29,299 bases of DNA from an uncultured virus (IMG/VR IMGVR_UViG_3300029931_000005) (Duplodnaviria > Heunggongvirae > Uroviricota > Caudoviricetes), in the IMG/VR virus record IMGVR_UViG_3300029931_000005, one strand, 5' to 3'. The position numbers were made by a program, and so were the translations under genes. Positions 20,944 through 29,299 of the stretch are shown here, in pieces (positions within the stretch are counted from its first letter, which is position 1; each line of letters opens with the position of its first letter). The notes beneath the pieces were generated by a model. That model saw only the letters and a program-made list of their open reading frames with translations. It made no database searches and was not told the DNA's origin.

Positions 20944-23742
20944 TTAGCTGATCTTGACGTAGGCGCCCTTGCCAGGAATCGGGGCGATATACCCGTTGTA
21001 CTGCTGGATATAATACTGTTCGCTGGCCACCAACTCGCGGTCGCTGTTGTAGGTCGGGAACGGGCCTTTCAGCTCCATTGCCCCGAAGGTGCGGTACATC
21101 AGCAGCTCGCGGTTGTGAATGAGGGCGTAGGCATCGGTGAACACCGGCGAGGCGTACACATCCAGCCCCTTCATCCGCCCCACGTACCCGGCTTCGTCCA
21201 ACATGGTGTCAGGACGGGCACCTGCGGCCGTGAAGAAATCGGCGTTGGAAATCAGGTCGCTGTTGGTCTTGCTCATCAGCATAATTTCCGGGGTGTAGAA
21301 GCGGTTCTCCACCTTCACCCGCGCCGTACCGGCTTTCTTGAGAAATTCCTTTTCGGAATCGGTGGCCGAGGCCCAGGTGCCGCCAGAGTTGCTGGCTACG
21401 GTGAGCACACGGCTCAAGGCATCGTGCATCAGGTTGCTGTCAATCCGGCGCATCACCTCTTTCATGAGCAGGTTGATGGTCCGGCCGACCACGTCGTAGC
21501 CCAGCTGGGAACGGCTGAATTTGATAGCCTCGTCGGTCACTTCCGTGGCCAGGCGGTCGGCAATCAAGCTCAGGTCCTCGTAGGCCACTTTGGAGCGGGC
21601 GCGTTCAATACCCAGGCCCTCACCCTTGCGGATGGCTTTGTGGGTGTAACTCACGTAGACCGTGGCCGCGTCAGCGATTGCCCCGTCGGCGAAGTTCATG
21701 AAACGGCCGTTGGTGTGGTCAATCACGTAATCGGTGCCATAGGTGTACAGCGTGCCGCCACCAGAGGCGGCGCTGCGAGCCACAATCGAGCTGGGGTCAA
21801 CACGCTTGTTGGCCAGGTTCACCCAGGTGTCGTCATCGGCAGTGATGCTTTCGTCGGTGACCGTGACATTGGTGCCGGTCTCTGCCTCATATTGAGCCTC
21901 ATAGAACACGCGGGTGGGGTTGGTGTCCACCGTACCCACATCGAAGATGCTCAGCGCCACCAGCTGCGGGAAAGCCTCGTCCACGATGGCCCGGAGCACG
22001 CTGTAAGGCGAGTTCAACTGGCTGGTGGTCATAGCCTCCTGCCAGTCGTGGGCTTCCTTGGCCAACTGGCGCTCAAACTGCTTGTCGAACGCTTCCAGGT
22101 ACAGCTTGGTGAAGCGTGCGGCCCGGCTGGTCTGGCTGCGATTTTGGCGCGGCTGCCAGAAGTTGTGGGCAATCATGGATTCGGTGATTTCATAAGCAGC
22201 CCGAGCAAACTCAGGCACATTAGCTTCGGCTTCAATCATCGGCACGATGTGCTGCACACGGCCGTTGCCACCCATACCCATTTGGGTCAGACGCTCTTTG
22301 GCGACCAGGGGGGCGAACAAGGCTTTGGCCTCTTCCAATTTGGTCTTGGCAATTTCCGCGGTGGCCGCTTCGCCGATATAGGCCTTCACCCGGTCCTTAT
22401 ACAGTTCGGGATAGGGCAGCTCAGCAACGGCCGTTTCCACGTAAGTGGCGGCTTCACGAGCCAGGTCTTTGGCGCGGCCCTCGTCCAGCTTTTTCTGCTC
22501 AGCGGCCAGCGCTTCGGCCAGGTTGCCATCGGGGCCAATGCCCAGGCGTTCGCGCAGAGCTTTCTCGGCCGCAGCAGCGGCAGCCTGTTCTTTGGCTTGG
22601 ACTTCGACCAGTTCGGCCTGACGTTGGGCTTCGGCCTCTTCCAGCTTGGCAGCCTTGTCGGCAGCAGCTTTGGCGGTTGCCTCGGCCGTTTTCACGGCTT
22701 CTTGCAGCTCTTTGATTCGAGCTTCGGCCGCATCAACGGCAGATTTGTCTTTGGCTTCACGCAGGGATTTCAGTTCTTTCTGCGCTTCGGCCAACTGTTG
22801 TTTGAGTTGTTCAATGTCCATTTCGTTCGTCGTGCCTCCATTTGCACTTTCTTGGAATGCGGTGACGCCAGCACCGGCAAAGCCTGGCTCCAGGACCAGA
22901 TCGGCCCCGGTTAAGCGCAGCCAGATAACCTCATCGATGGTTTCGTCACCCTCTTTAACTTGCTCACTCTCGCCGTAGGCCCTAAGCGAGATAGGAGGCA
23001 TCACTCCCGCTCGCATAACCGACAGGACATCTTTGCCAACGGCCGTTTCCACGACATTGCCAGCGATGTAGACCCAGCCGTCCGATTCGTCGAACCAGAC
23101 GTCGTCCCACACCACCACAACTTCGCGGAGCATTGGCCGCTGATACTTGTCCCCCGGATGAGCATCCTCGCCGGTCAGGATGGCGCGTGCCTGGGAAAAG
23201 CTCTCGTGCAGGTGGGAGCGCGCTTCTTCCACCGCATCACGGAGCACAATCCGCCGATACCGCCTGCCATTGCGATTTACCACATCCGCTTCGGCTAATT
23301 TGGCCTCTACACGCGGCACACCTGGTTTCTTCTTGTTCTTGGCTTCAACCAGGCGCACTGCGCTTGCATACGTTTCTGTAAATTTGGAGCCGCGCTTGAG
23401 GCGCTGCTCTGACATAGGGGCTGGCTCTCCTCCCCCGCCCTGGCTGCCGGGCAACTGGTAGCCCAGCTCGATCACTTCCCAATCCTCACGAGGGGCAAAC
23501 GTCACCTTGGCACCATCGCGCTGATAGGCGACCATGTAGAATTCGTCGATGGGCAGCTGGCTGCTGGACACCACGATGAATTCAGCAAAGGTGTCCTCAA
23601 CGTTGAACCACTCGCCGCTTTCATAGTCCCAATTGCTGGGGAACGTCTTGTGAAATGCCCGCACAATGACGTGCCGGGTGTACTCGATGGAACCCTTTAC
23701 CAATTCAGTTAGCGGGCTGCCCCGGTTAATACGCTTTTTCAT
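20944..23742 (-). CDS. Prohead protease-scaffold-major capsid polyprotein
   Basis: NRNGRRY...GEDAHP...ISLRAYG...GADLV protease motifs (T4 gp21-like), an Ala/Glu/Lys coiled coil, then a capsid-like C-terminal ~360 aa; AAGGAG SD. Confidence 0.88.
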   Translation of the reverse strand: MKKRINRGSPLTELVKGSIEYTRHVIVRAFHKTFPSNWDYESGEWFNVEDTFAEFIVVSSSQLPIDEFYMVAYQRDGAKVTFAPREDWEVIELGYQLPGSQGGGGEPAPMSEQRLKRGSKFTETYASAVRLVEAKNKKKPGVPRVEAKLAEADVVNRNGRRYRRIVLRDAVEEARSHLHESFSQARAILTGEDAHPGDKYQRPMLREVVVVWDDVWFDESDGWVYIAGNVVETAVGKDVLSVMRAGVMPPISLRAYGESEQVKEGDETIDEVIWLRLTGADLVLEPGFAGAGVTAFQESANGGTTNEMDIEQLKQQLAEAQKELKSLREAKDKSAVDAAEARIKELQEAVKTAEATAKAAADKAAKLEEAEAQRQAELVEVQAKEQAAAAAAEKALRERLGIGPDGNLAEALAAEQKKLDEGRAKDLAREAATYVETAVAELPYPELYKDRVKAYIGEAATAEIAKTKLEEAKALFAPLVAKERLTQMGMGGNGRVQHIVPMIEAEANVPEFARAAYEITESMIAHNFWQPRQNRSQTSRAARFTKLYLEAFDKQFERQLAKEAHDWQEAMTTSQLNSPYSVLRAIVDEAFPQLVALSIFDVGTVDTNPTRVFYEAQYEAETGTNVTVTDESITADDDTWVNLANKRVDPSSIVARSAASGGGTLYTYGTDYVIDHTNGRFMNFADGAIADAATVYVSYTHKAIRKGEGLGIERARSKVAYEDLSLIADRLATEVTDEAIKFSRSQLGYDVVGRTINLLMKEVMRRIDSNLMHDALSRVLTVASNSGGTWASATDSEKEFLKKAGTARVKVENRFYTPEIMLMSKTNSDLISNADFFTAAGARPDTMLDEAGYVGRMKGLDVYASPVFTDAYALIHNRELLMYRTFGAMELKGPFPTYNSDRELVASEQYYIQQYNGYIAPIPGKGAYVKIS

Positions 23743-23765: not shown

Positions 23766-23797
23766 AAAAAGAGCCAGACTTTTACTGTCTGGCTCTT
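23766..23797 (-). terminator. Intrinsic terminator-like hairpin just upstream of the capsid gene
   Basis: Minus strand AAGAGCCAGAC-AGTAAAA-GTCTGGCTC-TTTTT. Confidence 0.7.
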
Positions 23798-23878: not shown

Positions 23879-24223
23879 CTACTCACCTTTTAGAATGAGC
23901 TTGATGGTTCGCGCCGCCCCCTGATTGACCGGAACGCCGCTGGTGCCGCTGCGGACTTTGATCCAACGGCCGATGCCGATCAGATCGTCAGACCCCAGAG
24001 CAATGGCACGAGAAGCGGCAGCAGTGATGGTGAATTCGGTTGCGGCCTTGTCGTACACATTATTGTAGGTGCCGGTTTCAGTAACGGCCGCTTGCAGCGT
24101 GAGGTTGGCTGCGGTCCAGGCATCGGGCATCACAACACCAACCAGGGTTTTGGTACCCAGATACACGGCCGCGCTGAGTGACGCGCCGTTGGGGATTACA
24201 ACATCAATTACCGCATCGTTCAT
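23879..24223 (-). CDS. Small beta-rich protein, possibly capsid decoration
   Basis: IPNGASLSAAV...MPDAWTAANLTLQ...IKVRSGT..PVNQGAARTI; AAGGAA SD; adjacent to the capsid gene. Confidence 0.6.
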   Translation of the reverse strand: MNDAVIDVVIPNGASLSAAVYLGTKTLVGVVMPDAWTAANLTLQAAVTETGTYNNVYDKAATEFTITAAASRAIALGSDDLIGIGRWIKVRSGTSGVPVNQGAARTIKLILKGE

Positions 24224-24292: not shown

Positions 24293-24338
24293 AAATGGCC
24301 GCAGCAAGTCCCCGTCTCGGGTGGGGGACGGCCGTTGC

Positions 24339-24821
24339 TTACGGTAGTTTTACCCCACTGTTTGCTATCCTCAATTTGTAATAATACTTATCACCAAGCG
24401 CTCGCACCTTTTGGGGGTCCGATTTTCTGCCGACACCGTTGCATAAGGGAGACATATCATATATTAACTTTTCCTCATATCCCTTTCGTGCATCTTTTCC
24501 CGAAAGACGCACGGCTTCGTGCTGGCTCACATCATACAATTGGCACCACAGTTCTACATGCTGCTTGGGCAAACCCATTCCCTTTACAATATCTGCGGCG
24601 TCATACATATCTACTGTAATATTTTCTATCCCGGCAACCTCAATTGCTTCACTTAAGTTGCGGTTTGTTCTTTGCTTCCTAAAATGCTCCCAAACCCTTG
24701 ATGGAGCATAGGTGCTTTCGCCAATATAAAGGATGTCCTCGCCGCATCTAAAAACATAAACGTAATAGTCGCCATCTGGATACGTGTCGTTTTTGATTTC
24801 TTCGTAATTGGTAGCAATCAC
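24339..24821 (-). CDS. GIY-YIG nuclease
   Basis: YYVYVFRCGEDILYIGES....RVWEH; start moved to GTG 24821 behind an AGGAGAG SD; AT-rich. Confidence 0.8.
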   Translation of the reverse strand: MIATNYEEIKNDTYPDGDYYVYVFRCGEDILYIGESTYAPSRVWEHFRKQRTNRNLSEAIEVAGIENITVDMYDAADIVKGMGLPKQHVELWCQLYDVSQHEAVRLSGKDARKGYEEKLIYDMSPLCNGVGRKSDPQKVRALGDKYYYKLRIANSGVKLP

Positions 24822-24856
24822 TTTTGCTCTCTCCTGTTCCAGTTGTGATAATTGAG

Positions 24857-24882
24857 AAAAAAGGGCGAAACGGCCGTTTCGC
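24857..24882 (-). terminator. Intrinsic terminator-like hairpin built on the iterated palindrome
   Basis: 18-bp perfect palindrome GCGAAACGGCCGTTTCGC (24865-24882) followed by CCTTTTTT on the minus strand. Confidence 0.65.
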
Positions 24883-24920
24883 ACAAAGTATTAGGCGCGG
24901 CAGCTTCTCGCGGGTGGGGC

Positions 24921-25013
24921 GATCGTAACGATCTCGGGTCACAGAGATAAGCCAGTGTCTGTGGTTGTAACAACCACAGAGATGTCTGTTCGTGTAACAC
25001 GAACGGACATCTC
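24921..25013. repeat. Three tandem inverted repeats, each centred on G-TAA-C
   Basis: GATCG-TAA-CGATC (24921-24933); TCTGTGGTTG-TAA-CAACCACAGA (24958-24980); GAGATGTCTGTTCGTG-TAA-CACGAACGGACATCTC (24979-25013). Confidence 0.9.
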
Positions 25014-25389
25014 AACCATCCGTGTTAGGCGTACAGTTAGCCTCGTCCTCCGGGTCGTCTCGCTTTGGTTTCCCTAGTACCTCTGGCGCGAGTCGGCAGA
25101 TCGTGACGAGTCCGTCGCTCGGATCGATGCCTAGGCGCTCGCGGAGATGTTTTTCGCTCCACTGGAGGTAATCTTCCTTCTCGCGACGCCAACGCGCCCT
25201 TGCCTCCAGAAACCTCACCACCAACGGATGGTCTGCCGGGTACATCTTCAGCATTTCTTCCAGCTTTTTTTCTGCGACAGGACGCACCTCTTCGATTCTC
25301 CGTAGTGCGTCCTTCAGCGCTGCCAAATAAACTTCCAGGTTTTCACCCTCAATACCACTCAAAAGCTCTTCGGTTCCATCGTGTGTCAT
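25012..25389 (-). CDS. Hypothetical helical protein carrying a scaffold-like peptide
   Basis: Likely start ATG 25389 (GGAG SD); contains EKHLRERLGIDP. Confidence 0.65.
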   Translation of the reverse strand: MTHDGTEELLSGIEGENLEVYLAALKDALRRIEEVRPVAEKKLEEMLKMYPADHPLVVRFLEARARWRREKEDYLQWSEKHLRERLGIDPSDGLVTICRLAPEVLGKPKRDDPEDEANCTPNTDG

Positions 25390-25428
25390 GTTATTATCTC
25401 CATCTTGGATATTTTTACACAAAATAAA

Positions 25429-25731
25429 CTACCCACCACTCCCCCCAACGGCCGTTTTCACATCTGCCCGGTCCAGGATGGCCGTAGCGGCTTCGCGTCG
25501 GACACTGGGGTCAGAGTGGGCCAATAGGCACACCAGTGTATGGACCGCTGCGGGTGCCGCAATTTCGAACCTTTCATTATTCTGACGAATGCGATCACTG
25601 ACTTTATTGTAAAGCCCGACGCACTGATCGACCGCGAAGCCGTGCTCAGCCATCAGAATCTGGGCCACGGTCAGCATTATCTGACCAGCTAAATCTCCCG
25701 GCGCAGGCGCACCCAACCTCACCACAGACAT
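25429..25731 (-). CDS. Chimeric protein: paralog of 26523..26813 fused to a copy of a TerS C-terminal segment
   Basis: Start ATG 25731 (AAGGAG SD); hand alignments given under findings. Confidence 0.75.
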   Translation of the reverse strand: MSVVRLGAPAPGDLAGQIMLTVAQILMAEHGFAVDQCVGLYNKVSDRIRQNNERFEIAAPAAVHTLVCLLAHSDPSVRREAATAILDRADVKTAVGGSGG

Positions 25732-25753
25732 ATTCTCGCTCCTTATCTCAATA

Positions 25754-26215
25754 TTACTCACGGCCATCCTCCTCGACTGTCGTCTCCTCAACGGCCGTTT
25801 CTGTACCCTGAACCAACTTGGGATATGGTTCGAGGTAACCCATATCCCCCTCGTGTTTGGGAACCAAGGCTACGGCCGTGACTGCGAGAATTTTTGTTAC
25901 AACCTGCGGCCCATCGGGGCTGAGCTGGTCTGACTCCACAACCATACTGAGCGCCGGTCGGAGGTTGGCGGCGACGGCTTCATCAAGTGGCGTTTCAAAA
26001 TATATGACCAACTGGCCATCCACAAGCCGAACCTGGCCAATGGCATCCTCCAGGCGATACCCAGGCCACAAGGGAGTCAGGTTATAGCTAACAAGCGTGC
26101 CAGGCAGCATTTGCCGCACCAGTTCCTTTGCCTCATCGGATAATGTGTACCCGTTGAAGGACTCGCCCATCAACATGCCGTCATGCAGAACATAAGCGCC
26201 ATATGCCTTACTCAT
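25754..26215 (-). CDS. Hypothetical protein, possible degenerate prohead-protease paralog
   Basis: Start ATG 26215 (GAGGAGG SD); collinear motifs shared with the capsid protease domain. Confidence 0.55.
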   Translation of the reverse strand: MSKAYGAYVLHDGMLMGESFNGYTLSDEAKELVRQMLPGTLVSYNLTPLWPGYRLEDAIGQVRLVDGQLVIYFETPLDEAVAANLRPALSMVVESDQLSPDGPQVVTKILAVTAVALVPKHEGDMGYLEPYPKLVQGTETAVEETTVEEDGRE

Positions 26216-26226
26216 CTCCATCCTCC

Positions 26227-26523
26227 TCAACGGCCGTTTTTCTGGCCACTTCTCAAGTTTTCCAACATGTGGTCAAGATCGCTGGATAAATCCCATAGCG
26301 GTTCCAGGATCGGGTACGTTGTAACATCTGCGCTCATCAGGCCGGTTTTTGGGATGTGCACGGCAAAATCGTCAGGCAGCTTAGATTCGATAGTAAACAG
26401 TGCTCGATCTAGCCAGTGCATGATGTCATCAAGAACGGCAATCAGAACCTCACTGTTGCCCGCGCTGGCTTGAATCAACCGGGAGAGGGGAATAGCCACC
26501 AGGGTTTCGTTGATAGAATCCAT
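26227..26523 (-). CDS. Hypothetical protein
   Basis: TAATG coupling and GAGGGGG SD; no family recognised. Confidence 0.6.
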   Translation of the reverse strand: MDSINETLVAIPLSRLIQASAGNSEVLIAVLDDIMHWLDRALFTIESKLPDDFAVHIPKTGLMSADVTTYPILEPLWDLSSDLDHMLENLRSGQKNGR

Positions 26524-26813
26524 TATGCATCCCCCTCGACGGCCGTTAATGCCTCAGGCGCGGCCGTTCCCTCTTCCGCCCACGCCGCCTGGCCACCACG
26601 CAGCACGGCATTGTTCTGGCGGATGTGTTTGACCACCTTTTCGCCAAACTCGACACACTGATCTTGGGTAAAGCCATAGTCACCTATCAGGACCTGGGCC
26701 GCAGCCGTCATTATCTGGCTGGCCGAATCCTGGCGCACCTGCATCTCAAATGCCGCCTCGCGCAGCGCCTGGCGCTGTCTGCCGCTTACCTTGGTTTTGA
26801 TTTTCTTTCTCAT
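26523..26813 (-). CDS. Hypothetical protein
   Basis: AAGGGAAGGA SD; has an internal paralog at 25429..25731. Confidence 0.7.
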   Translation of the reverse strand: MRKKIKTKVSGRQRQALREAAFEMQVRQDSASQIMTAAAQVLIGDYGFTQDQCVEFGEKVVKHIRQNNAVLRGGQAAWAEEGTAAPEALTAVEGDA

Positions 26814-26823
26814 GTCCTTCCCT

Positions 26824-27096
26824 TTAACCTAAATCGTTAATGGCGCCGTGGTCGGTGCGACGGCCGCCCAGAATGCTGTCATCCAGGATGGCCCACACGG
26901 ACGGCTCTGGTTGATAAATTGGAACGCCTCCGGCGCTGATCTTCTCCATCAGCTGCCTAACCCCTTCCCTTGAGCGATACCCTGCTATTTCCATAACGCG
27001 CTCCACGGTAATACGTTTGTCTCGGCTGGTGAGCATGACAAAAACCACCTTGGCCGAGCGCCCCTGCGGGCTCATATCCTCGTAGATTAAGCTCAT
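26824..27096 (-). CDS. Winged helix-turn-helix DNA-binding protein
   Basis: ITVERVMEIAGYRSREGVRQLMEKISAGGVPIY, an HTH_11-like pattern. Confidence 0.55.
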   Translation of the reverse strand: MSLIYEDMSPQGRSAKVVFVMLTSRDKRITVERVMEIAGYRSREGVRQLMEKISAGGVPIYQPEPSVWAILDDSILGGRRTDHGAINDLG

Positions 27097-27129: not shown

Positions 27130-28878
27130 CTAAGTAAGTCCCAACTGGTCGGTCGTAACGACACGGCCGGTTCCGACTTCTAATTTTTTCTCAATCTCGG
27201 TAAAAATGTGCGGCGGAGCTGCGCACAGAACAAACCCATCACCATCGTCTGGCGAACGGCCGTATTCCTTCTTGAACTCGTCCTTATCCACCAGGCGCTT
27301 GATGGTCTTACCCGATCGGTTAACCCACTTCCACTTGCGGGCCGTCAGGTCAACCTCCAGTTCGTTAGGCGGGTCTACAACCTGGATACCCTTGATGGTC
27401 TCCCCGGCCTCGGCGTACATTTCCGTGACGATGAGATCGTAGGCATTGGGGTCATGAGCAGCAGAGCCGAAGTGAACTTCAATCACCTTGAACTCATCAA
27501 ACGCTTCCTCCAGCTCAATGTCCATTTTCAACAGGTCGATAGTGCCCCCACCAAAGCCGCCTGTGCCGTCCACGCGGATGTGCAGCTTTGTGACGCCCAG
27601 CCTGGCCAGGCGCAGGGCAGCTTTGCGCGTTTCCTGGTAGTAGACATTGTTGTCTAACTGGAAAAACTGAGCCTGCCGCCAGATGCGGCCCGCATGGCGA
27701 ATGTAGAGCGTGCCAAAGTCGCTGCCGCGCCGGGCGGCATCAATTCCCATGTAAGCCGTTGTCAGGTCGTGCTCGACCGGATTTACCTTACGTGCAACGG
27801 CCGATTCGTAGCGGCCAGATGGGATGAATGTATCATCACTGGTTTCCTTGGGGGCAATCCCCATGACACGGAAGAGGTATTCATTGTTTGGGCGATAAAT
27901 GACGCCCGGTTCCCACGGCAGCTCGAAAGTAAACCAGTCGGGGTTGTGCTCTGGTACAACGCGGCAGTGTTTTTCTACCATGGTCAGCACATAATCGCGG
28001 CGGACCGCGCCGGGCACAACCTCACGGCCGTGGAGCACGTTGGGGTGATGGTGGCAGCTCATGCGGAAATTAACCACATCCGACTGCCCGCGCTGCCGGT
28101 GAAACTTGCTGGTCCGGGTGCGCGGGTTGGCCGTCATGATCACGATGGCAATACCACCAGAGGCCATAGAGTCCACCGCGTCCCACACAAAGTCGGCGAC
28201 GCCCTCGGCTTCATCCAGGATGAACATCAGGTATTTTTCATGCTGCCCCTGGGCACGTTCGGTACCGGCGTTGTTGGCATTGTTGGTAGCCTTACCCTTG
28301 GCGAAGTGATTGGGCTTGTATTTCAGCTCTGGCTTTTCTAGGACGGTGCCGGGCAGGTCGATGTTGCGGCGACGGTCGGTGCGGATCTCCTTCCACAGCA
28401 GATCGTTGATCTGCTCGTAGGTTGGAGCGAAGGTGTACTCAATGCAGCCATCGGTCTCTTCTTCTGCAACGCAGTCGAAGAAGTGAGAAAACAGGCCAGA
28501 TAAAATCTTGGTCTTGCCCGTGGTGTGACCCGCCTCGATGCGCAGCCGATTTTGAACCGTCTGTCCCGGCTGCCAGTGCTGCAAATCGGCCGTAGCTACG
28601 TGGCCTTTCTCCCACTTGTCCTTTTCGTGCAGCTGCAGCAGAGCCAGGCGATACGCTTCAATAATCTGCACCTGTCCGGGATGTTCGGCCGTGCCGCTCC
28701 ACGGCGTCCAGCCCAGGCGCTCCACAATGTAGGTGTATGGGTCGTACTTGTAGCCAGACAGGGTGGGATAGGTGTACTGAACGGCCGTTTCCGTCTGGCG
28801 GCGGCGGCGCTCCTTGGCTGCAGCCAGGCGCACGTCGGCAAGGGTGGTAATCTGGCGGGTAGTGGTAGGCATCATCAT
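27130..28878 (-). CDS. terL: Terminase large subunit
   Basis: Walker A AGHTTGKT, Walker B FILDEAEG, TANP, nuclease motifs MGIDAAR.GSD and SPDDGDG. Confidence 0.93.
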   Translation of the reverse strand: MMMPTTTRQITTLADVRLAAAKERRRRQTETAVQYTYPTLSGYKYDPYTYIVERLGWTPWSGTAEHPGQVQIIEAYRLALLQLHEKDKWEKGHVATADLQHWQPGQTVQNRLRIEAGHTTGKTKILSGLFSHFFDCVAEEETDGCIEYTFAPTYEQINDLLWKEIRTDRRRNIDLPGTVLEKPELKYKPNHFAKGKATNNANNAGTERAQGQHEKYLMFILDEAEGVADFVWDAVDSMASGGIAIVIMTANPRTRTSKFHRQRGQSDVVNFRMSCHHHPNVLHGREVVPGAVRRDYVLTMVEKHCRVVPEHNPDWFTFELPWEPGVIYRPNNEYLFRVMGIAPKETSDDTFIPSGRYESAVARKVNPVEHDLTTAYMGIDAARRGSDFGTLYIRHAGRIWRQAQFFQLDNNVYYQETRKAALRLARLGVTKLHIRVDGTGGFGGGTIDLLKMDIELEEAFDEFKVIEVHFGSAAHDPNAYDLIVTEMYAEAGETIKGIQVVDPPNELEVDLTARKWKWVNRSGKTIKRLVDKDEFKKEYGRSPDDGDGFVLCAAPPHIFTEIEKKLEVGTGRVVTTDQLGLT

Positions 28879-29299
28879 TTCAACAATGCCTCAATCACAT
28901 CCTGGGGCGATCGAGCGTTTTGCAGCGCCTCAATCTGCACCAGGGTCAGGGCGGTCATGTCGATGTTATTCAAAATGAGGTTCATCAACTGGCCTTCTTT
29001 GGACGCCGTTTCCACGCCTGCCCGATCCAGGATGGCCGTAGCAGCCCGGTATTGGACGTTTGGGTCGGGGTTGGCCATCAGGGCCACTAACTTGCCGGCC
29101 GCCGTAGGCGCAGCCAGCTGCAGGCGCTCAGTGGCCAGTTGCAGCGACCTCACATATCTACTGTCCTGCCACTCCTTGGCCAGTGTGCTCAGCGCTCCCA
29201 GGCAATCGGCAAAAGCCGGGTCTAGCTTCCATTTCGTGTGATAGGTTTTGACGTTGCAGGTGTCAGGGCGGCCAAACACGGCCGTTTCCGACTCGCCAG
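28875..29299 (-). CDS. Terminase small subunit (5' end outside the window)
   Basis: Frame open to the right edge; TYHTKWKLDPAF...AATAILDRAG; ATGA overlap with terL. Confidence 0.7.
   Translation of the reverse strand, partial: GESETAVFGRPDTCNVKTYHTKWKLDPAFADCLGALSTLAKEWQDSRYVRSLQLATERLQLAAPTAAGKLVALMANPDPNVQYRAATAILDRAGVETASKEGQLMNLILNNIDMTALTLVQIEALQNARSPQDVIEALLK

Follow-up and report, generated by a model that had tools for sequence, protein, structure and literature searches.

The stretch of DNA analysed here, which we call the window, is 29,299 nt long and has all of its long open reading frames (ORFs) on the minus strand. These make up the structural block of a tailed phage, in which the terminase genes are accompanied by genes for portal-like and minor head proteins, a major tail protein, a tape measure, minor tail proteins and an HNH endonuclease. 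The large terminase gene, TerL (27130..28878, minus strand, 582 amino acids), was assigned by tblastn to annotated terminase large subunits. Across 77-87% of the query, its identity to these proteins, which come from cultured phages, is 24-27% (E 2e-17 to 3e-9); Pfam and a PDB sequence search gave no match. The small terminase gene, TerS (28875..29297, minus strand), is cut by the window end and its stop overlaps the TerL start; the full frame, seen in the locus L001, encodes 220 amino acids. Directly 3′ of TerL lies a 90-aa gene (26824-27096) that looks helix-turn-helix-like by eye and has no family in Pfam, PHROGs or NCBIfam. It is followed by P0002 (26523..26813, minus strand, 96 amino acids), a gene whose core (26610-26729) recurs in the chimeric gene described below. 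We found two relatives of P0002, namely a 91% identical ortholog in the locus L011 and P0012, a 102-aa protein from another phage. The family has no name in Pfam, PHROGs or NCBIfam, and the leads for it in a protein atlas are unnamed viral clusters. Farther along, at 20944-23742, a 932-aa head protease fusion joins a prohead protease domain (Peptidase_S77, E 2.5e-14) to an Ig-like region.

L011, found by a metagenome scan, is a relative at 86.6% DNA identity in which TerS, TerL, the conserved 90-aa gene and the P0002 ortholog keep their order. Beyond the stop of P0002, the L011 sequence continues with about 340 unrelated bases that contain one different ORF, and then with the ortholog of the window gene at 23879-24223. 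The intervening 2.2 kb of the window (24297..26528, minus strand), as delimited by blastn, the ORF list and the junction alignment with L011, are thus an accessory cassette. It holds five genes, encoding proteins of 98 aa and 158 aa, the chimera that is the subject of this work, a protein of about 126 aa and a GIY-YIG-like protein of 181 aa. The last of these genes (24339-24884) has a GC content of 0.44 (0.56 in the window as a whole), and its GIY-YIG match is weak and below the cut-off (Pfam E 0.007); together these suggest a homing-endonuclease-type insertion. The chimeric gene itself lies between TerL and the head protease gene, 1.4 kb downstream of TerL with four genes between, and on the same strand as the terminase genes.

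A scan for consensus terminators gave its strongest hit of the stretch downstream of the cassette, after the gene at 23879-24223, where a hairpin with an 11-bp stem and a T run (23769..23797, minus strand) may mark the end of a transcription unit begun at the terminase genes. Two weaker hairpins were found inside the cassette, at 24958-24980 and 24865-24882, between the gene that follows the chimera and the GIY-YIG-like gene. One of them has a perfect 10-bp stem, the other is built on the iterated palindrome described below with a T run after it, and the pair may act as a stop to transcription within the cassette. Promoter-like signals in the stretch do not exceed expectation (2 found, against a shuffle mean of 3.1).

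The chimeric gene, P0001 (25429..25731, minus strand), translates into 100 amino acids and a stop, and a Shine-Dalgarno-like AAGGAG (25739..25744, same strand) stands 7 nt ahead of its ATG. The N half of the protein (residues 13-52; 25576..25695, minus strand) is the core common to the P0002 family, and the C half (residues 53-94; 25450..25575, minus strand) is a TerS-type helical hairpin. BLASTP aligns residues 13-52 with residues 29-68 of P0002 without gaps (21/40 identical, E 3e-13) and residues 53-94 with residues 57-98 of the window's TerS piece, the hairpin encoded at 29004-29129, again without gaps (25/42 identical, E 6e-14). In an all-against-all BLASTP of the 34 delimited window proteins, these are the only paralogous pairs at E<1e-3. 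The initial annotation, made from the letters of the DNA, had called this gene a clean two-part chimera of a neighbouring paralog and a TerS segment joined with no linker, and the two BLASTP matches bear this out, with a junction exactly at N52/E53. Its alignment to the product of 26523..26813, given as 20/38, is recovered by BLASTP at slightly greater length; its count of 25/42 for the TerS part is identical to ours; and the DNA match that it put at 36/41 (25451-25491 with 29005-29045) agrees with our alignment, in which self-blastn delimits a core of 34/38 (25451-25488 with 29005-29042, E 1.4e-6). The two parent proteins are unrelated to one another (BLASTP E 6.2). A misalignment by MAFFT had hinted at deep homology between the P0002 family and TerS, but hhalign rejects it (probability 0.4%).

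Read in its own frame, the chimera has a coding log-likelihood of +0.24 per codon, both shifted frames give negative values, and the coding statistics are positive in both halves. The AF2 model is poor (mean pLDDT 59) and predicts four helices, two in the N half (14-30 and 34-54) and two in the C half (60-70 and 75-88), with a low-confidence break at 53-58, at the junction. Aligned with the P0002 family, the chimera lacks about 17 N-terminal residues and has the middle and tail region replaced. The 40-residue core of the family (Q-I-M...D-Q-C-V...I-R-Q-N-N) is present, whereas the basic N-terminal segment (MRKKIKTK...QALREAAFE) and the long acidic tail are missing. An HMM of this core gives the chimera 95.6 bits, but the chimera is one of the three sequences from which it was built. 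The N half is nearer to P0012, from the other phage (25/40), than to the resident P0002 (21/40). Searches of Pfam, PHROGs and NCBIfam gave no HTH family in the chimera, and NCBIfam returned nothing meaningful for it or for P0002.

Both halves have diverged far from their resident counterparts, and to the same degree. By the Nei-Gojobori method, the C half against TerS gives a dS of 1.28 and a dN of 0.30 and the N half against P0002 a dS of 1.25 and a dN of 0.33, with dN/dS ratios of 0.23 and 0.27, respectively, that may mostly reflect constraint on the parent genes. By these distances, the halves are copies of equal age that long predate the split from the 87% relative, and both appear to have evolved under constraint, part of which may be that of the parent genes. 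Among proteins, the resident TerS is nearer to the C half by a small margin only, with 25/42 against 18-23/42 for 13 more distant members of the family. In a 38-nt block, the DNA of the C half matches TerS of the window phage and TerS of the 87% relative at 34/38 each, and 17 distant TerS genes at only 22-29/38, although these encode nearly the same residues. The donor was thus TerS of this lineage, or else the second hairpin helix was later homogenised by gene conversion.

The 3′ end of the gene is of a different character. The tail, VGGSGG and the stop (25429..25449, minus strand), begins within the palindrome AACGGCCGTT, and its DNA is like the tails of the P0002 family and unlike TerS. Past a shared AACGGC, in the six final codons and the DNA 3′ of them, 12/15 bases agree with the P0002 ortholog of L011 and about 4/15 with TerS, so that AACGGC is the point at which the sequence switches from TerS-like to P0002-like. 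It is plausible from these few bases that a P0002-type gene had its middle swapped for the TerS hairpin by recombination at short homologies; the P0002-like tail, at six residues, is too short to be proof of such a replacement.

The same phage, 100% identical over the common parts, was found in G001 (39.9 kb), in L006 (a 7.4-kb IMG/VR record) and in L012 (a 91,227-bp metagenome contig), and the chimera is identical in all three, as in every copy found. About 39 window bases are missing from L006 as an indel (23179-23221, within the 932-aa ORF), and this record is therefore not simply the same assembly. The phage is one of sewage sludge, and the window stretch is complete in four runs of one bioreactor-sludge study; the sequencing-run search listed no RNA run that contains it. 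It is highly improbable that the gene is an assembly artefact, since the same arrangement occurs in the window, G001, L006 with its indel elsewhere and the 91-kb contig behind L012, and since an assembler would be unable to join sequences only 65% identical to their supposed sources. The initial annotation had thought an assembly chimera unlikely given the divergence, and the divergence of both halves indeed excludes assembly chimerism. P0001 is very probably a real, old, in-frame fusion of a P0002-type core and a TerS hairpin in an uncultured tailed phage of about 91 kb.

What the C half brings with it depends on which part of TerS was copied. Small terminases choose the DNA for phage packaging. 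The resident gene is recognised as one by its relation to solved TerS structures, its position before TerL and its HTH-plus-hairpin plan. In an alignment of 16 homologues, from which our family profile was made, two parts of TerS are best conserved: an N-terminal region (TIIALVDARLAG...TYH.KWK..P.F) and a second part with the pattern AAERL.LA.P.A...L......D......RAA.AILDRAGVETA. The profile matches the solved TerS proteins of NV1 (7JOQ, E 1.5e-5) and PaP3 (6W7T, E 4.4e-3) precisely over this second part. PaP3 TerS, as described in PMC7672466, has an HTH-bearing helical region (residues 18-63), an α4-α5 hairpin (64-105) and a β-strand (107-121), of which the hairpin and strand form the oligomerisation core, and also a disordered acidic tail. 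A review outlines the same general domain plan for TerS proteins, with TerL binding in the C-terminal part in lambda and P22 (PMC9611059). The AF2 model of the resident TerS is fair (pLDDT 76) and has short helices at 64-103, ahead of a long helix (107-142) and helices at 144-154 and 159-190. With this model, Foldseek gave no significant match (best E 0.36), and the best VIA-align hit, 2ao9 (Z 7.3, rmsd 6.6, 102 aligned), is within the background for helical proteins.

Comparison with this plan supports a C half that corresponds to the oligomerisation hairpin alone, without HTH, stalk strand or C-terminal tail. The initial annotation had taken the copied part for the TerS oligomerisation helices without the DNA-binding end, which agrees with the profile match to NV1 and PaP3 TerS and with the domain plan as set out in PMC7672466. 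The resident TerS runs 42 residues beyond the hairpin; the chimera stops 6 residues past it, so the TerS-type stalk strand and the C-terminal TerL-binding moiety are missing. What the chimera shares with the resident TerS family and with the PaP3 and NV1 proteins (6W7T, 7JOQ) is the pattern ER...AP.A...[6-8 residues]..R..AA..ILDRAG; unlike those two proteins, it has no HTH, stalk strand or acidic C-terminal tail, has a foreign N half and is not encoded beside the start of a large terminase gene. Because it lacks three of the four defining features of small terminases, it should not be annotated as TerS.

The hairpin also resembles a single HEAT-type repeat. It shares with HEAT and Arm repeats (PF13513, PF13646, PF02985, PF00514) a helix-turn-helix unit and the pattern LV.LL...DP.VR..AA.AL, but it is a single unit, and its Pfam HEAT/Arm scores of 13.6-19.0 bits are all below the gathering cut-offs of 20.6-27.7 (19.0 against 20.6, 17.2 against 27 and 16.7 against 27.7). 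HMMER with the chimera gave 20 matches among 1.84 billion representatives. Seventeen of these matches are proteins 329-1659 aa long that align in 3-11 stretches; five of the seventeen were read in sequence, and all five are HEAT-repeat proteins. The other matches were P0012 and P0014, the latter a TerS ortholog. Leads for the chimera in the protein atlas are, likewise, small clusters named 'HEAT repeat' (0.91) and clusters of TerS (0.85-0.86). The likeness to a single repeat explains both the weak Pfam matches and the dominance of long HEAT-repeat proteins in the library search. Those top matches might be taken to mean that the C half is an independent HEAT-like repeat merely resembling TerS. 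We regard this, too, as highly improbable, given the 38-nt block that is so much closer to TerS of the resident clade than to distant TerS genes, and given the motifs ER..AAP.A and AATAILDRA..TA, which are TerS-specific. A hairpin HMM made from the 16 TerS sequences gives the chimera 54.3 bits (E 2.7e-15), inside the range of true distant TerS (27-91 bits).

The fusion appears to be confined to this phage. The initial annotation had suggested looking for it in other genomes, and neither the exhaustive HMMER search of 1.84 billion representatives, which did not return the chimera itself either, nor 26 further TerS-family loci gave another case. These loci came from an IMG/VR scan with the TerS alignment and are more distant; 22 of the 26 include at least 3.45 kb downstream of TerS, and each has exactly one ORF that matches the hairpin HMM, namely TerS. 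Among the fetched loci, a second hairpin ORF was seen in the window phage only, and the P0002 core in the window phage and L011 only. IMG/VR scans with the chimera, TerL, P0012 and P0014 returned the identical phage only, and genome collection scans with the P0002-family and TerS alignments returned nothing. Word-indexed searches of limited sensitivity found no match, either to the chimera or, among proteins of 30-120 aa, to the TerS hairpin region. Contigs from three other studies (80% likeness) cover parts of TerS, TerL, P0002, the 158-aa gene and the gene at 23879-24223; they leave 25088-25639 uncovered with no contig spanning it, from which nothing follows. Because the chimera is absent from L011 and the 26 loci have no second hairpin ORF, it is not needed for packaging.

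Such a distribution bears on whether the gene has an important function at all. It could have arisen as a by-product when illegitimate recombination took place in a hypervariable region, and be an almost neutral ORF that simply persists. Its location in a cassette missing from a close relative would fit, as would the absence of an ortholog from the 1.84 billion representatives and the word-indexed library and a coding score below the 0.35-0.53 per codon of its neighbours. We nonetheless consider this distinctly unlikely: the 100-codon frame is open in both halves despite a dS of about 1.25, dN/dS is about 0.25 and the gene has a good ribosome-binding site.

If the gene has a function, its borrowed hairpin points to TerS as a candidate partner. 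Of 15 invariant or near-invariant TerS columns in the hairpin, by our own comparison, the chimera keeps 12, and its second hairpin helix is 12/14 identical to that of TerS. The three exceptions, in TerS numbering, are L141 to I, R164 to E and G174 to D, of which the latter two are non-conservative changes at near-invariant positions and count against docking on TerS. So do the strong divergence of the first hairpin helix (12/28 identical to TerS) and the missing stalk strand, which in PaP3 is part of the oligomerisation core. A mixed TerS/chimera oligomer had been proposed in the initial annotation as a subject for structure prediction. We predicted the complex of three copies of TerS residues 125-220 with the chimera, TerS being given with a 16-row alignment. 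The result stood above its controls, with a score of 0.44 against 0.00 for the best of three, and was graded 'weak support'; at least 43% of contacts are common to the runs, and the pLDDT of the partner is at least 56. Of 157 solved complexes, 116 attain the mark for such support, as do 2 of 215 mismatched pairs; at a score of 0.60 or under, only 18 of the 157 attain it, together with both of the passing mismatches. A score of 0.44 lies in the band in which such a verdict fails more often than it holds, unless the proposed pairing was probable beforehand. Moreover, TerS rings have already been solved and are in the PDB, so the pass may only reflect likeness to them.

Some of the same evidence could be read as reuse of the hairpin without any contact with TerS. 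The P0002-type core would then have gained self-assembly, into a dimer or ring of its own, and would serve a process of the P0002 family. The hairpin is a generic HEAT-like two-helix unit, as the long, multi-stretch library matches and the weak Pfam HEAT/Arm matches indicate; its first helix and two near-invariant positions have moved away from TerS; and the P0002-like gene tail suggests a modified P0002-type gene. Against such reuse stand the 12/15 conserved positions, the 12/14 identity of the second helix and, in the weak complex prediction, the score of 0.00 when an unrelated protein took the place of TerS. We judge reuse of this kind to be somewhat unlikely.

We tentatively favour a possible action on TerS itself, in which the chimera would bind TerS and alter the assembly or function of its ring, as a ring-binding modulator or poison. 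The initial annotation had likewise thought that the chimera could join or poison TerS rings, which is plausible. The chimera would be co-produced with the terminase, and its borrowed hairpin would dock on TerS protomers or on incomplete TerS rings. Since the chimera has no HTH, stalk strand or TerL-binding tail, each docked copy would take out one DNA-reading and one motor-recruiting element, or would cap ring growth. The outcome would be a substoichiometric modulator or a dominant-negative poison of the phage's own TerS or of the TerS of co-infecting relatives; the N-terminal hairpin would present an extra surface. A bolder version, which we think unlikely, is that of a purpose-built dominant-negative subunit, made from the phage's own TerS hairpin and carried on a swappable cassette, that would tune packaging initiation or sabotage the rings of closely related co-infecting phages.

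Precedents exist for parts of this proposal. The RcGTA protein gp1, as described in PMC6854486, starts with the oligomerisation coiled coil and seemingly lacks a DNA-binding domain at its N-terminus, and is the essential, sole TerS of its particle. A natural TerS-type protein without a DNA-binding domain can thus exist; unlike gp1, the chimera is encoded in addition to a complete TerS and is without the C-terminal part. Rpp of Gram-negative phage-inducible chromosomal islands (PICIs) and Ppi of SaPIs are described as small proteins that bind phage TerS and block or redirect packaging, Rpp mimicking the TerS DNA-binding domain and docking onto that domain (PMC6739421). The action proposed for the chimera, whose binding to TerS is weakly predicted, would be of the same kind. 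Rpp and Ppi are satellite-encoded, whereas the chimera is phage-encoded, and the target of Rpp is the DNA-binding domain and not the ring core. To our knowledge, the TerS-subverting proteins described so far, Ppi and Rpp, are all satellite-derived and have other folds. The titles and abstracts of the literature we searched contain no phage-encoded TerS oligomerisation hairpin fused to another domain.

In the bolder version, the chimera would do between phages what the satellite proteins Ppi and Rpp do to phages. Any action on TerS would make it a new and very simple means of regulating or poisoning the packaging ring, built from the ring core of TerS. Binding would also make the 42-residue hairpin usable as a handle on TerS assembly. 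Even if it does not bind, the gene is a record of domain shuffling at microhomologies within a variable cassette. As a fusion, it would show clearly, and in a way that can be dated, how a new phage gene is made from joined pieces of two resident genes.

The window is also rich in an iterated palindrome. The octamer ACGGCCGT occurs in 48 copies in 29.3 kb, where shuffles lead one to expect 0.6, and is the commonest 8-mer of the window, the next palindrome having 6 copies. Examples are at 25448-25455, 25791-25798, 26230-26237 and 26539-26546. Among the 46 genic copies, 30 are in the frame ACG-GCC-GTN (Thr-Ala-Val). The 10-mer AACGGCCGTT has 15 copies against 0.05 expected, and an extended form, AACGGCCGTYGRGGRG, is found at the 3′ end of each of four small genes in a row, among them that of the chimera. 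The density of the octamer is 2.2 per kb in L011 and 0-0.25 per kb at the 26 distant TerS-family loci. It resembles a highly iterated palindrome of the cyanobacterial HIP1 kind, although the sequence differs, and a full-text literature search for the octamer gave two matches only, both unrelated. Many diverged direct repeats are found in the gene for a 672-aa minor tail protein (1700-2970), including a 42-base exact pair (2461-2502 and 2665-2706); most of the repeat units carry ACGGCCGT, at spacings of 66-339 bases.
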